From positions 1 through 54,367 of the IMG/VR virus record IMGVR_UViG_2531839448_000005: a stretch of 54,367 nucleotides of DNA; one strand, written 5' to 3'. The stretch comes from a virus (taxonomy: Duplodnaviria > Heunggongvirae > Uroviricota > Caudoviricetes). The number at the start of each line of letters is the position of its first letter. Position 1 is the first letter of the stretch. Below the pieces are notes generated by a model. That model ran no database searches. It saw only the letters and a list, made by a program, of their open reading frames with translations, and was not told where the DNA came from. The translations under genes were made by a program, and so were the position numbers. Below, one piece after another: positions 37,420 through 53,476 of the stretch.

Positions 37420-37494
<75 letters not shown>

Positions 37495-37497
37495 ATA

Positions 37498-37573
<76 letters not shown>

Positions 37574-37575
37574 AC

Positions 37576-37652
37576 TGGACCGCCACCGGGGACTCGAACC
37601 TCGCACACTCAACTTAAAGGGTTGACGCTCTTTCCTGATGAGCTAGTGGCGG
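37576..37652 (-). tRNA. tRNA-like, anticodon loop CCUUUAA (putative UUU/Lys, non-canonical C33)
   Basis: 77 nt; 7 bp acceptor stem, TTCGAGT T-loop, CCA end; one mismatch in the T stem. Confidence 0.45.
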
Positions 37653-37653
37653 C

Positions 37654-37729
37654 TGGTGGCCCTTGCTGGATTTGAACCAGCGACCTGGCGATTATGAGTC
37701 GCTCGCTCTCACCACTGAGCTAAAGGGCC
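37654..37729 (-). tRNA. tRNA-Ile2/Met (anticodon CAU), ileX/ileZ-like
   Basis: 76 nt cloverleaf, anticodon loop CUCAUAA, close to E. coli ileX as recalled. Confidence 0.8.
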
Positions 37730-38981: not shown

Positions 38982-40103
38982 TTACCCGAGCACGCCGGTT
39001 GCAAAGGCGTGATCAAGAAAACGAAAAATTAAATCAACCTGGGAACCATGCTTTTCTTCGAACGCCAGCGGATCCGCATGAAGTTCGTTGTGATGTTCCC
39101 GGCACAACGGTAGCGTGAAAATATCGTGGGCCTTTGTTCCCATCCCTCCCTGACCGTGACCAATCAGGTGATGGGGATCGTCGGCTGGCTGACCACAACA
39201 CGCACACGGCTGTGTCTTCACCCAGCGCGTATATTTCTCATTTACCCAACGGCGACGTTTAGGTCGCCTCATGAAAGATTCCGGAGACTCCGGATCAACG
39301 GTGATGCATACCACCGTCTTTTCCTGTGGTGGGTTCTGTTGCTGGTGGGCATGAGGCAACGGCGCAAGATTTTTTGTGCGCTGCTTCAGTATGCTGGTGG
39401 CGGTCTGCTCTCCCGGTACGATGTCGCTTTCGCGGTACAAGGAGCGGATTTTTTCCGCACGTACCCCCAGAGAACGACGTAATACTGCCTCCGGAAGCGC
39501 GTCCGCCACCTGATTGCAGACCGCCCACCAAGATAATTCAGCCAGCGACAATTCCCGCTCCTGCGTGCCATTCATTGCATGGCGTATGACGTCAATCATC
39601 CATGCTGACAGGTTTTGATGAGCAAGTTGCCCGAGTGATTCGGATGTCTGGTCACGCAACTGGTTGTCGCAGTGCCAGCACAACACCATCGCGCTGGTAC
39701 CGTAACGATGTATGACGATTTCACTGTGATGATAGTCACCATGAGGCCACTGGCAGGATTTGACATGACGCAACAGCCAGTCAGACAGTGCCCCAGCGCC
39801 GCCAGCAGCACGAATCACCCGCTCATCGCTGAAAAATGGCAGTAATGATTTATCCTCCGCCAGCGGCTGGCGAACGGCAGGGACGACTCCGGACGGCAGA
39901 CCGCGCATGCTTTTCGGTTCAGGCTCCACCAGCACTCGAGGGTTATGAAATACTTGCATGGATTCACGGCCCGGCCTAAGGACCACCAGCCCGAGTTCCG
40001 GTACCAGAACAGGTCGAAGTAATATCCGCACGTTACCTCCAGATCCGTTGCTGGTATGTGCGGGATGGGTGCGGTGGGCGTTCGGAATAAGGGAGCCTGA
40101 CAT
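38982..40103 (-). CDS. DUF968-family prophage protein (YdfU-like); true start probably internal
   Basis: C-terminal CACCGQPADDPHHLIGHGQGGMGTKAHD...PLCREHHNELH motif cluster. Confidence 0.55.
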   Translation of the reverse strand: MSGSLIPNAHRTHPAHTSNGSGGNVRILLRPVLVPELGLVVLRPGRESMQVFHNPRVLVEPEPKSMRGLPSGVVPAVRQPLAEDKSLLPFFSDERVIRAAGGAGALSDWLLRHVKSCQWPHGDYHHSEIVIHRYGTSAMVLCWHCDNQLRDQTSESLGQLAHQNLSAWMIDVIRHAMNGTQERELSLAELSWWAVCNQVADALPEAVLRRSLGVRAEKIRSLYRESDIVPGEQTATSILKQRTKNLAPLPHAHQQQNPPQEKTVVCITVDPESPESFMRRPKRRRWVNEKYTRWVKTQPCACCGQPADDPHHLIGHGQGGMGTKAHDIFTLPLCREHHNELHADPLAFEEKHGSQVDLIFRFLDHAFATGVLG

Positions 40104-40311
40104 AGATTATCCAGTGACGATAATCGAGGCTGAGGGCTTTCTTAATCTCGTATCCGCGTCTGCGATAGTTATGAATTAGCCATTCGGCCTGTTCTTCAGT
40201 ACATGGGTCATGCTGGAACCAGTCAGATTTGAAAGTGCGGGAACGCCGCCCGTGCCTGCTGGCAAAGACGGCAGAATCATCAGAATTGTGTAATTTGGTA
40301 TCGTGCGCCAT
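40033..40311 (-). CDS. hypothetical protein
   Basis: 92 aa ORF overlapping the DUF968 5' region; either could be the real start. Confidence 0.25.
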   Translation of the reverse strand: MAHDTKLHNSDDSAVFASRHGRRSRTFKSDWFQHDPCTEEQAEWLIHNYRRRGYEIKKALSLDYRHWIIYVRLPYSERPPHPSRTYQQRIWR

Positions 40312-40606
40312 CGGTTGTCTCTGCTGGCGCAGCAGGTGCCAGTTGTTCAGGCTGGCGTGCGAATTGTAAACCAGAATGCCAGGAAAAACAAAACCCGCCG
40401 AAGCGGGTATGCTAAAACAAACTGAAAGTAATATACCGGACTTGTAAAGGAACGATAGAATAATTATTGGATTAAACCCTGACTCAATCCAGATTTCATA
40501 GACAACAACTACGGACTAATCATCACAGTCATGTTTGATAGACTTAGTCCACATTGGGTGAGGGTTTACGGCGTTTTCACTAATAATTTATCGTCCAAGC
40601 TATACA

Positions 40607-40999
40607 CTACTGCCCTGTTTTAACGAAGTTTTTAAAGGAAACAACTGCCTGATAGGGGTTTGGTTGACAGCCAAACATATTATCGCAAAAAGGCTTGATG
40701 AAAATTCTTGAGGATCCATCTTCATTTGGCATTTTACTCACTTGATAAGCGAGGAATGGACTATTTGGAGAGGGATTATAAGTGGAAATTAGCGTGTCTG
40801 TCGCCGTTTGAATTTTCCATGAGGAATTATTAGCCAACCAGAATTGCGCTCGTTTCCAATAAAAGTCACATTGCTTTTCATCATTACATGTTAGTGGCTT
40901 CATTGCTTCTGCTTTCAACGCTGGATCGACCTTTGCTGCACACCCTCCCAACATTACTGTTGCAATCATTACACCTGCGACTAAAACAAGTTTCTTCAT
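40607..40999 (-). CDS. lipoprotein, unknown function
   Basis: signal peptide with lipobox LGGC; Cys-rich mature part. Confidence 0.5.
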   Translation of the reverse strand: MKKLVLVAGVMIATVMLGGCAAKVDPALKAEAMKPLTCNDEKQCDFYWKRAQFWLANNSSWKIQTATDTLISTYNPSPNSPFLAYQVSKMPNEDGSSRIFIKPFCDNMFGCQPNPYQAVVSFKNFVKTGQ

Positions 41000-41142
41000 C
41001 TCCCTGCCCCATCAATAAAAGTTCGGTTCTCTAATAACTAGAGTTAATCAACGGAAAAAACGCCGAAGCGGGTTAAGTGCGGGTGCGTTGAGGATGCCTG
41101 ACACATCAGAGGTGGCGAGGGATTTCTCCCCCGCCAGGTCTC

Positions 41143-41298
41143 TTACTCCTCAGGTTCGTAAGCTGTGAAGACAGCGACCTCCGTCTGGCCGGTTCGGATT
41201 CGTACCTCGCAGAGGTCTTTCCTCGTTACCAGTACCGTCACTATGACGGTTAAACAGATGACGATCAGGGCGATTAACATCGCCTTTTGCTGCTTCAT
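41143..41298 (-). CDS. hokD: Hok/Gef-family type I toxin
   Basis: MKQQKAMLIALIVICLTVIVTVLVTRKDLCEVRIRTGQTEVAVFTAYEPEE, near-identical to HokD/RelF as recalled. Confidence 0.85.
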   Translation of the reverse strand: MKQQKAMLIALIVICLTVIVTVLVTRKDLCEVRIRTGQTEVAVFTAYEPEE

Positions 41299-41558
41299 AG
41301 CCTGCTTCTCCTTGCCTTTCGGCACGTAAGAGGCTAACCTACATTTGTGAGACATAGATTGGGCCTCAGATTAATGTTAAGCGTCTTGCAGGACGCGTAA
41401 TGTTAACTGGGGCTTTTCTCTATCTGCCTTTTGGTGTTCATGCCCGAGGCAGATAGCCTCAAGCACCCGCAGCAATTCTACTTAACTCTCCTTTTCCCGC
41501 AAACCGTTTTTGCTCACCATGATAAGTCGTTATTGTAATTAATTGACATAACGATTAG

Positions 41559-42455
41559 TCAAAACTCAATTTTTTGCGCTGGTCTTGCATTTAATATCCA
41601 ACATTCTTGATGAGTGTGGTGCGCAATCAATAAATTTTGTAGTTGTGTTTTTTTGGCTTTATAATTTAACTCATTTGTCGTATCAATTATCCAATTCCCT
41701 GTCCCCGAAGAAGCCAGTGCCATGAGTTTATTACACTCTGCATGCATATTAATTATCTCACCAAACATATCTGTTTTTGTTTTTTTATTCACAAAGTTAG
41801 TAAAAATACCAGCATGCTTATAAGAATCCATTACAGTATAACGGCCATCACCATCTATATCAGAAGGTTTTGACATCCATTTAAAAACATGAAGGAGAAA
41901 AATATTGGCCGTCCAAGGAAATTCATCTCCATCAAGAAACGTTTCAGTAGTCGCTATACTCAGACTCTCAGTAAGATTAGTCGCCCCAATTAAAACAACC
42001 TCAGGCTCGCCATCCTTTCTTTTACCCGCCCCAACAAAATTGAACGTACCTGCATAACACTGTCCAAAATAAACAATAGCATTGTTTAAATTAGGTGCTC
42101 CTTTTAAAGCCTTGAGAAGTTGATGAGGAGTAATAGGATTTTTTGCATCCAGTCCTTGTGGGCAACCATGACCAGTAACAAACATTACTATGTTATTGTA
42201 GTTATTATCACGCAAGTCATTAAAGAAATCTGCTGATGCTTTTGACGCATAAGGATACTTCGAGGCTGATGAAAAAAAATCATCAAAATTCCTGTTAGGG
42301 CTGTCAATATATATTGATATGTCTCGTGGATTTATACCGGCCTTCTCAAGACATAGCACGCCAAAAACAATATCCAAAACGTGGCGCGATTCAACTTCTT
42401 CTTTAGAACAAGGCAAAAACATAACCCATTTCGTACGCTCAGACCTAAGGCTCAT
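41559..42455 (-). CDS. caspase-like (clan CD) peptidase-fold protein (tentative)
   Basis: beta-strand then GHG (IVMFVTGHG) and beta-strand then QC (IVYFGQCYAG) about 37 residues apart, resembling a His/Cys dyad; AT-rich gene. Confidence 0.35.
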   Translation of the reverse strand: MSLRSERTKWVMFLPCSKEEVESRHVLDIVFGVLCLEKAGINPRDISIYIDSPNRNFDDFFSSASKYPYASKASADFFNDLRDNNYNNIVMFVTGHGCPQGLDAKNPITPHQLLKALKGAPNLNNAIVYFGQCYAGTFNFVGAGKRKDGEPEVVLIGATNLTESLSIATTETFLDGDEFPWTANIFLLHVFKWMSKPSDIDGDGRYTVMDSYKHAGIFTNFVNKKTKTDMFGEIINMHAECNKLMALASSGTGNWIIDTTNELNYKAKKTQLQNLLIAHHTHQECWILNARPAQKIEF

Positions 42456-42495
42456 ACATATCCTTATGATTCGAATGTTTTAAGTTAAAATTTTG

Positions 42496-42789
42496 TTAAT
42501 ATTTAGGAGGCATTGCATTACTGAAAGATGGTGGCTTTGGTATATCAATAAAGTAAAAAAGCTCATCGATGCTTAAATGTTCAGTAATTTGGGTGGACGT
42601 TATTTGCCCTCTTTCATTCAAACCAAATATTTCATCGCCAGTTTTCAGAAAAAACACCACTTCAAATGTTGTGGTTACTTCATGCGCATAAGATTTGAAC
42701 AGCATCCACTGCCCGAGATTCACACACTCTTTTACTGAATCAGAAGTATCAGGTAACGCTGACGACTGTAGCCCTGTGAATTTCATCAT
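42496..42789 (-). CDS. hypothetical protein, upstream partner of the caspase-like gene
   Basis: 97 aa ORF 40 bp upstream on the same strand; AT-rich. Confidence 0.4.
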   Translation of the reverse strand: MMKFTGLQSSALPDTSDSVKECVNLGQWMLFKSYAHEVTTTFEVVFFLKTGDEIFGLNERGQITSTQITEHLSIDELFYFIDIPKPPSFSNAMPPKY

Positions 42790-42985
42790 TTATCCTTATG
42801 AATCCGCATACGACATTCTAACAACATGGTATTTTTACGAACACAAACTGTGTGGGCGAGTTACCGACCACACAGAGAAAATATAACTTTGTGCCTCCGT
42901 TTTCGTCAACCCCAGCGGCAAATCGAATACACCACCAGCGCCACCGCCATTGCAATTCCTACCGTTGTGAATGCTTCAGGCCAGG

Positions 42986-43330
42986 TCATCGCAAAACATC
43001 CTCCGCGCTTATCAGTTCGTTCCGCTTCAGGTAGTCCATCGCCTTATCCGGCAATTTACAGTCCGGCTTCACTTTCCTCAGTTGCCAGGTTAACTGCTTT
43101 ACCAGCATGGTTAACTCGTCGACCAGACGCTGATATCCCACTGGTTTGTATTCATGCAATTTACCGGCTGGCTCTGCTGCCAGCGATGCCAATGCGATTT
43201 CCAAAACAGCAATATCCATTTTATATGTGCGGATGATGTCATGGTCGATTGTGCCTGGTATGCACAGTCTCTGTGCTTCAATAGTCTCCTCTGCGTGAGT
43301 TATTAACTGCTCTCTGGTAAAAGTGGTCAT
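42986..43330 (-). CDS. hypothetical protein
   Basis: 114 aa ORF. Confidence 0.4.
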
Positions 43331-43340
43331 GTGTTACTCC

Positions 43341-43604
43341 TTAACCCGCAGTGCTTTCAACTGATGAGGGGAACAAAATCTTTTCATCAAACCCTGCATT
43401 CATATCATGAACAGCAACACACCAATCCACCGACGAACGATTATCAAGAGCCTCCATGATTTCATCCATGCGGCGTAGGTCATACAGGTAAATGTTTTTA
43501 TCGCCAATGGTGTAAAAGCCAATTTTTTTCGGTGATGGACAGCGATCAATGACGTCCTGTAATTCGTTCAACCATGCCTGTTCTTTTTTTGTCAAAGTTG
43601 CCAT
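43341..43604 (-). CDS. hypothetical protein
   Basis: start MATLTKKEQAWL. Confidence 0.4.
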   Translation of the reverse strand: MATLTKKEQAWLNELQDVIDRCPSPKKIGFYTIGDKNIYLYDLRRMDEIMEALDNRSSVDWCVAVHDMNAGFDEKILFPSSVESTAG

Positions 43605-48569: not shown

Positions 48570-49130
48570 TAGCTAACCAACGAAGCTAAGGTTGGTAATT
48601 AAGGAGTTCTCCACGGGTGAGGTGGAGTGCGTGCGCCGGACACGGGTGAGCATCCGGCACTGACAGTTTACTGAAAGGATATTTCCATGAAAAGTCAGAC
48701 CATAACGCGAAAGCGCACGGCGAGGTAGCTGGTTCATAGATAGCCTGTCGTTAAATTTTCGTCGGCCGTGCGCTTCCGGTTGTGGCACTCCGCGAAATGG
48801 CGCGGCGGTAAGTATGGCGGGGTTATTCCTTCCCCGTTGAGGACACCTGGTTGTCAGGTTGACCATACGCTTAAGTGACAACCCCGCTGCAACGCCCTCT
48901 GTTATCAATTTTCTGGTGACGTTTGGCGGTATCAGTTTTACTCCGTGACTGCTCTGCCGCCCTTTTTAAAGTGAATTTTGTGATGCGGTGAATGCGGCTA
49001 AGCGCACGCGGAACAGTTAAAACCAAAAACAGTGTTATGGGTGGATTCTCTGTATCCGGCGTTAATTGTTAACTGGTTAACGTCACCTGGAGGCACCAGG
49101 CACCGCATCACAAAACTCATTGTTGAGGGC
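48570..49130 (+). other. about 560 bp structured non-coding region (several hairpins, long-range inverted repeat)
   Basis: hairpins CCAACgaagctaagGTTGG and GCCGGAcacgggtgagcaTCCGGC; 9 bp GCGCACGGC/GCCGTGCGC pair; 15 bp inverted repeat TTTTGTGATGCGGTG / CACCGCATCACAAAA. Confidence 0.3.
48930..48966 (+). terminator. candidate terminator inside the non-coding region
   Basis: GGCGG...CCGCC stem followed by CTTTTT. Confidence 0.3.
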
Positions 49131-53386: not shown

Positions 53387-53476
53387 TGGCGGAGAGAGGG
53401 GGATTTGAACCCCCGGTGGAGTTGCCCCCACTCCGGTTTTCGAGACCGGTCCGTTCAGCCGCTCCGGCATCTCTCC
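53387..53476 (-). tRNA. serU: tRNA-Ser (anticodon CGA)
   Basis: 90 nt with long variable arm, anticodon loop CUCGAAA, CCA encoded. Confidence 0.85.

Follow-up and report, generated by a model that had tools for sequence, protein, structure and literature searches.

The hok locus and its predicted transcript

The window, by which we mean the whole stretch of 54,367 nucleotides that was analysed, carries on its minus strand a reading frame for a Hok toxin of 51 amino acids (41143..41298), which starts with an ATG at 41298 and is preceded by the SD sequence AAGGAG at 41313..41308. The encoded peptide matches the Pfam family HOK_GEF (PF01848) with an E-value of 2.1e-23 and a score of 82 bits, as compared to a cutoff of 22. 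It is identical to K-12 HokD at 50 of 51 positions, the sole change being A22V, and an identical stretch of DNA carries the RefSeq annotation hokD. For comparison we used 64 distinct relatives, 62 of which are IMG/VR loci and two phage records (L084 and L086); A22V was found in one of the 64. A longer reading frame on the same strand, mok (41143..41355), is present in the list of open reading frames, codes for 70 amino acids and is in frame with hok. Its start signals, an SD sequence GAGG at 41367..41364 and an ATG at 41355..41353, were assigned by alignment to an R1-type locus, in which the mok ATG falls in the same place. In the K-12 annotation, mokC is likewise an in-frame N-terminal extension of hokC. 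Among the 64 relatives, mok occurs as the 70-amino acid in-frame form in 54 (the window included), as a 19-amino acid form that ends at the hok start in eight and as a 68-amino acid out-of-frame form in two. The TAC codon for Tyr47 of Hok and the G that follows it (UACG; 41157..41160, minus strand) are invariant in all 64 sequences, and it has been described that A-to-I editing by TadA changes the codon from tyrosine to cysteine in hokC, hokD and hokE (preprint 10.1101/2025.08.07.668861).

The best sigma-70-like site on the minus strand of 41040-41560, identified in a relaxed scan with 8 of 12 matching positions, is our candidate for the hok promoter (41475..41502). It consists of the -35 element TTGCGG at 41502..41497, a 16-nt spacer and the -10 element TAGAAT at 41480..41475; a consensus promoter/terminator scanner applied to 40950-41650 returned no site above threshold, the hok promoter included. 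The -10 element and the +1 position are aligned with TATGAT and GGCGCTTGAGG of the R1-type locus, and the hok mRNA would thus start at approximately 41468. TAGAAT is retained in nearly all relatives and the hok -35 region is variable. The left border of the hok/sok module that is common to different prophages lies at one of three points in the promoter region (~41511, ~41487 or ~41481, within 41480..41512), and the -35 element is therefore often replaced while the -10 element is kept.

From this start, a full-length hok mRNA of 414 nt is predicted (41055..41468, minus strand). Its regulatory elements are named according to published definitions (PMC9841398) and their positions were carried over by alignment to the R1-type locus of an IncFII plasmid, with which the hok -10 and +1, tac, the 5' hairpin, ucb, the mok SD and ATG, dcb and the hok SD and ATG are all in register. 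The transcript begins with the translational activator element tac (41457..41468, GGGUGCUUGAGG), which is aligned to GGCGCUUGAGGC of R1 and invariant in the 64 relatives, and continues with a 5' hairpin (41420..41455) formed by the arms CUAUCUGCC (41455..41447) and GGCAGAUAG (41428..41420). The anti-SD element ucb (41407..41413, GCCCCAG) follows, which pairs with the mok SD region CUGAGGC in the full-length molecule and with tac in the truncated one. The mok-SD/dcb target hairpin (41330..41367, GAGGC...GCCUC, with dcb at 41334..41330) is seen in the 3'-truncated fold and in the Rfam structure, and its loop, CUCACAA, contains a YUNR motif. Downstream of the hok reading frame lie a 3' stem-loop (41114..41135, GGCGGGGGAGAAAUCCCUCGCC), the counterpart of GGAGGCGGGCGCAGGCCCGCC in R1 and the structure expected at the 3' end of the processed mRNA, and the fold-back inhibitory element fbi (41079..41093, CCUCAACGCACCCGC), which pairs with tac. 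All of these elements are on the minus strand, and no variation was seen among the relatives in tac, fbi, ucb or the SD motifs. The role of the 3' stem-loop has been described for R1 (PMC9841398).

The leader of this transcript is matched by the Rfam family RF01794, 'sok', at 41468..41293 on the hok strand and over the full length of the model (120.1 bits as compared to a gathering score of 59, E-value 5e-28). This is the single significant Rfam match in 39500-43500 and the only match to this family anywhere in the 54-kb window. The 5' hairpin corresponds to the first stem of the RF01794 structure. We also considered the matched segment as the Sok RNA itself and rejected this, as it is the hok strand that is matched and the match stops at the hok AUG; for the same reasons, RF01794, although named 'sok antitoxin', models the hok mRNA leader in its open form and not Sok.

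The 3' end of the transcription unit is damaged. The hok terminator (41055..41073, minus strand, ACCCGCUUCGGCGUUUUUU) is degenerate and retains a stem of 3 bp; the window sequence, ending in GGCGUUUUUU, folds with -3.1 kcal/mol, as compared to -13.8 kcal/mol for the consensus ACCCGCUUCGGCGGGUUUU of nearly all relatives. The stem was cut to 3 bp because a 665-bp AT-rich cassette (40396..41073, minus strand) was inserted within it. The cassette is flanked by 13-bp direct repeats, CGCCGAAGCGGGT, at 40396-40408 and 41061-41073 and carries a gene for a lipoprotein of 130 amino acids (40999..40607), which matches the unnamed family phrog_16082 and for which searches of Pfam, PADLOC and NCBIfam gave no match. 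The same cassette-in-terminator arrangement is found in three further loci (L001, L038 and L080). An intact copy of a hok-type terminator is located at the far end of the cassette (~40412..40388), approximately 665 nt downstream, and many hok transcripts probably read through to this next terminator at ~40390. With a terminator stem of only 3 bp, the 3' end that the R1 activation scheme needs may not form here.

Folding of the hok mRNA and the Sok candidate

The full-length hok mRNA is predicted to fold with a minimum free energy of -168.4 kcal/mol (z = -7.6 relative to shuffled sequences) and with its 5' and 3' ends paired. In this closed form, nucleotides 1-12 are paired with nucleotides 376-388 (tac with fbi, 41468-41457 with 41093-41081) and ucb is paired with the mok SD. 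When the molecule is truncated in silico at nucleotides 358-369, the minimum free energy structure switches to the tac/ucb pairing and the mok-SD/dcb hairpin, and the same closed-to-open refolding has been described for R1 (PMC9841398). In the DNA, a perfect long-range inverted repeat of 9 nt joins 41078-41086 on the fbi side with 41463-41471 on the tac side.

Over the 64 relatives, 95.4% of the pair cells contain standard pairs. The tac-fbi helix (helix 1) has 12 pairs and is paired in 100%; the 5' hairpin (helix 2) is paired in 97.8%, with a compensatory exchange of A-U for G-C in four sequences; and the 3' stem-loop (helix 15) is present in the full-length as well as in the truncated folds, with G-U, A-U and G-C types at one of its pairs. 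Ten pairs have changed on both sides, as compared to 2.1 such pairs in shuffled controls (0 of 500 reached ten) and one to three in slid controls. Since the relatives share 96% mean identity and were picked by Hok similarity, and since the window itself supplied the structure, this covariation signal is modest and is taken as supportive, not as proof.

On the opposite strand, a candidate for the Sok promoter is located at 41312..41340 (plus strand), with the -35 element TTGCCT at 41312..41317, a spacer of 17 nt and the -10 element TAACCT at 41335..41340. It aligns without gaps with the stretch TTGCGC-17-TATCCT of the R1-type locus, which we take to be the Sok promoter of R1. In R1, the dcb sequence is the site of a Sok promoter mutation (PMC9841398). 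By consensus alone, the candidate does not stand out from chance sites, with 7 of 12 matches, a -10 element that matches at three of six positions and seven other plus-strand sites of at least 7/12 in the 520-bp stretch; we therefore base the assignment on the alignment with R1 and on its hexamers being conserved or improved (TTGACC, TAATCT) in relatives. The predicted Sok antisense RNA of ~75 nt (41347..41421, plus strand; ends according to the R1 alignment) would consist of a single-stranded 5' tail (41347-41360), a long hairpin (41361-41413) and a U-rich tail (41414-41421). Its predicted fold has -32.5 kcal/mol and a z-score of -5.1, and by construction it is complementary to the whole of the mok SD and start codon.

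The Pfam HOK_GEF match, the RF01794 match, the RefSeq annotation hokD and the column-for-column alignment with the R1-type locus support the assignment of this locus to the hok/sok-type type I toxin loci, and a near-identical Hok peptide together with homologous DNA of the coding sequence and 3' UTR (98% identity over 258 bp with K-12) argues for the hokD lineage. This agrees with the original prediction, which had been made from the letters of the window and had described such a locus with a Hok peptide that is essentially HokD/RelF. The span given there, 41143-41520, covers the reading frame and the leader and omits the 3' UTR (41142..41055) with the 3' stem-loop, fbi and the terminator; the strand is the minus strand. 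The original prediction had also pointed to an inverted repeat upstream of hok, CTATCTGCC/GGCAGATAG, as the one expected for the mRNA fold-back and the sok region. This repeat exists (41420-41428 and 41447-41455, within a 21-nt imperfect repeat, 41409-41429/41447-41467) and forms the conserved helix 2, the inner stem of the 5' hairpin beside tac. It is neither the fold-back nor Sok; the real fold-back is the tac-fbi helix, which reaches beyond the span noted, and Sok is predicted at ~41347-41421 on the plus strand. The absence of a Sok promoter and of antisense complementarity had been named as the observation that would speak against a hok/sok locus: complementarity was found, and a candidate promoter was found by positional homology with R1, though it does not stand out from chance sites when judged by consensus.

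Relatives of the locus and its genomic context

The stretch 41040-41600 (561 bp) was used as a query against 5,426 complete E. coli genomes and matched in 4,728 of them, at a median of two and up to ten places per genome; the hok/sok locus in the window is therefore an already known kind of element, which is widespread and annotated as hokD. At least 80% of the query, leader included, is covered in 2,362 of the 5,426 genomes, where the gene is annotated hokD throughout, and also in 74 phage records and 258 plasmids. The module occurs in 110 phage records, which include Rac, VT2-Sakai and other Stx phages, PPompW and P1-like phages, and is annotated in some of them as mok/hok, 'MokW' or 'gef'. 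Strain CV839-06 is the sole genome with a 100% match to the 561-bp stretch, and the module that is common to the other genomes spans 41055..41512.

Every defined element of the hok/sok (parB) locus of plasmid R1 has a positional counterpart in the window, in the same order and with nearly the same spacing, and the closed-to-open refolding is the same, here as a prediction from sequence and folding. The window differs from R1 in that its Hok belongs to a different branch of the family, its predicted Sok hairpin exceeds that of R1 by ~20 nt, mok and hok share one frame, the fbi-tac helix has 12 bp with one bulge and the locus resides in a prophage and not on a plasmid. The hok/mok loci of phages (Rac, MN652886, 'mok'/'hok'; VT2-Sakai and Stx phages, 'MokW'; PPompW, 'gef') share 88-97% DNA identity with the window across the entire module. 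In lambdoid and P1-like phages, these loci lie in the same prophage region, adjoining rem and Q-side genes, and have intact terminators; their Sok-tail/target-loop patch differs from that of the window, and, unlike in the window, mok is the 68-amino acid out-of-frame form in the Rac and P1-like copies. The hokC/mokC (gef) genes of K-12 represent a different locus and lineage, and the K-12 hokC copy was reportedly found by Pedersen and Gerdes in 1999 to be inactivated by an insertion element.

The closest comparison is hokD (relF) of the K-12 Qin prophage, whose DNA is 98% identical to the window over 41055..41312, that is, over the hok SD, the coding sequence, the 3' stem-loop, fbi and the terminator. 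Upstream of the 15 nt before the hok ATG, there is no similarity; relE ends at this point. K-12 hokD thus has no promoter, tac, ucb, mok start or Sok gene, whereas the window has the full leader; in K-12, relBE took the place of the leader from 41313 onwards, so that 41055..41312 is all that is left. In K-12, relF/hokD is co-transcribed with relBE as the last gene of the relBEF operon (PMC3598666). Downstream, K-12 and the window share a ydfU-like DUF968 gene and a reading frame of 92 amino acids with 84% identity. The K-12 order relB-relE-hokD-rem is not present in the window, where an AT-rich pair of genes occupies the relBE slot and the lipoprotein cassette the rem slot; this is a difference of context and not of the hok gene. 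The original prediction had placed relBE upstream of hokD in K-12, which is borne out by a K-12-type genome with relE and relB directly upstream, and had suggested that the AT-rich pair takes their position. The pair does lie upstream of hok; it begins beyond a complete leader, whereas relBE of K-12 replaced the leader.

The AT-rich pair consists of genes for proteins of 298 (41559..42455, minus strand) and 97 amino acids (42496..42789, minus strand), the latter preceding the former, and has a G+C content of 33-40% as compared to ~50% for hok. The 298-amino acid protein had no match in Pfam, PADLOC, NCBIfam or PHROGs, and the 97-amino acid protein had none in Pfam, PADLOC or NCBIfam and only one in PHROGs, to the unnamed phrog_30138. 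There are 220 homologues of the larger protein across Proteobacteria, some of them flagged Peptidase_C13 or 'caspase family', and its predicted model (pLDDT 91.7) resembles legumain, a GPI transamidase subunit and caspases (best E-value 3e-8, TM 0.48). The protein is confidently predicted from this model to have a legumain/caspase-like (clan CD) fold; His96 and Cys133 are invariant in 32 of its homologues. A homologue of the small partner gene precedes the homologue of the large one in Burkholderia islands, where an integrase and a resolvase lie alongside, and in a lambdoid prophage of Enterobacter. In none of the 80 other hokD-type phage loci is the pair located upstream of hok. We read the two genes as a conserved mobile module in the slot that is held by relBE in K-12. 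Between the window and strain CV839-06 (L001, 6520..7415), the 298-amino acid gene differs by a 1-nt indel (897 versus 896 nt), and the RefSeq product in that strain is shorter, with 275 amino acids. A palindrome of 14 + 14 nt, TCGTTATTGTAATT/AATTGACATAACGA, lies at 41527-41554 between the stop codon of this gene and the hok promoter and might act as an operator or, for the upstream pair, as an AT-rich terminator. Further away, the window contains a gene for the DicF antisense RNA (48911..48962, plus strand, 76.7 bits), four clustered tRNA genes that lie between the Q region and the lysis region (37423..37729, minus strand) and one further tRNA gene near the window end (53390..53476, minus strand); DicF and the tRNA genes mark the element as a Qin/Rac-like lambdoid prophage.

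Among the relatives, nucleotide diversity peaks at mRNA nucleotides 107-131 (41362..41338), reaching 0.33 at nucleotides 111-120 as compared to 0.056 overall; the diversities of the hok coding sequence and the leader are not comparable with one another, because the relatives were chosen by Hok similarity. This 25-nt patch corresponds to the 5' tail of Sok and to the loop and upper stem of the target hairpin and exists in 18 variants among 64 sequences; the target hairpin is retained in all 19 full-segment variants, with -9.6 to -15.5 kcal/mol. One might tentatively speculate that the variability reflects a diversified Sok-hok recognition, by which copies in co-resident prophages avoid cross-neutralisation, although we consider other causes to be likelier. 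Such a diversification would resemble the incompatibility groups of antisense-controlled plasmids, and we found no discussion of it in a recent Hok survey, which deferred Sok and the mRNA elements to future work. Among the 80 IMG/VR loci, only two genomes have two copies, whose Sok-tail variants differ in one case (L044/L061) and are the same in the other (L030/L053), and these are too few for a conclusion.

Predicted control of the toxin and alternative readings

We propose, with a probability of roughly 0.88, that a lambda-like E. coli prophage here carries the hok/sok toxin module in complete form and that RNA controls the toxin by an R1-type mechanism. The individual steps follow the R1 paradigm and were reproduced here by sequence comparison and folding only. 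According to this scheme, the weak promoter would give rise to the hok mRNA of ~414 nt, in which the tac element at the 5' end pairs with fbi at the 3' end. In this closed form, the ribosome-binding site of mok would be masked by ucb, and both ribosomes and Sok would be blocked. Slow trimming from the 3' end would then take off fbi, upon which the leader is expected to refold, with tac and ucb pairing and the mok SD entering the dcb hairpin. The refolded mRNA could be translated for mok and the coupled hok, and could also be bound by Sok, the short, unstable antisense RNA of ~75 nt from the opposite strand, which would pair with the mok start region and direct the mRNA to RNase III. If Sok synthesis stops, either by loss of the element or by a block of transcription, the pool of stable mRNA would yield Hok, the 51-amino acid membrane toxin.

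A different reading, to which we give perhaps one chance in five, is that the locus is structurally complete but functionally silent, a relic inherited with the prophage in which the damaged terminator prevents formation of the normal 3' end and processing. The terminator stem reduced to 3 bp by the cassette insertion fits with this reading, as do the Sok -10 element TAACCT with its three of six matches and the A22V substitution of this Hok copy, which is shared so rarely. In addition, the chromosomal hokA, hokB and hokC loci, which were tested earlier, are reported not to bring about post-segregational killing (preprint 10.1101/2025.08.07.668861). Against a relic stand the intact hok reading frame, the invariant tac, fbi, ucb and SD motifs and the regulatory pairings, all of which are intact, as in hundreds of prophage, phage and plasmid copies. 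Furthermore, fbi is still present in the read-through transcript, and the closed form can therefore still fold.

It is far less probable that hok expression comes mainly from the upstream operon, with hok as the last gene behind the 97- and 298-amino acid genes, and that Sok and the fold-back play a minor role. These genes are oriented in the same direction as hok, a consensus scan found no terminator-like site between 41559 and the hok promoter and K-12 relF is indeed co-transcribed with relBE (PMC3598666). Unlike the K-12 gene, however, the copy in the window still has a promoter of its own together with tac, ucb, the mok start and the candidate Sok gene, and the palindrome at 41527-41554 could separate both units. 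This leader is also found behind many unrelated upstream sequences, which indicates that it works as an autonomous module. That the reading frame and the inverted repeat are chance features, for which only the short length of the frame could be cited, is already refuted by Pfam, Rfam and BLAST matches with E-values from 1e-23 down to 0.

The complete, R1-type module is thus the reading that we prefer, and in this form the window shows the hokD/relF gene of K-12 as it was before relBE replaced its control region. The cassette inside the hok terminator may change the maturation of the toxin mRNA, and the hok locus is probably of less interest than the AT-rich pair that lies upstream of it. As for the hok/sok family, the locus represents one more module that occupies the variable slot in the nin region of lambdoid prophages; there, it may contribute to retention of the prophage or to exclusion of other phages.
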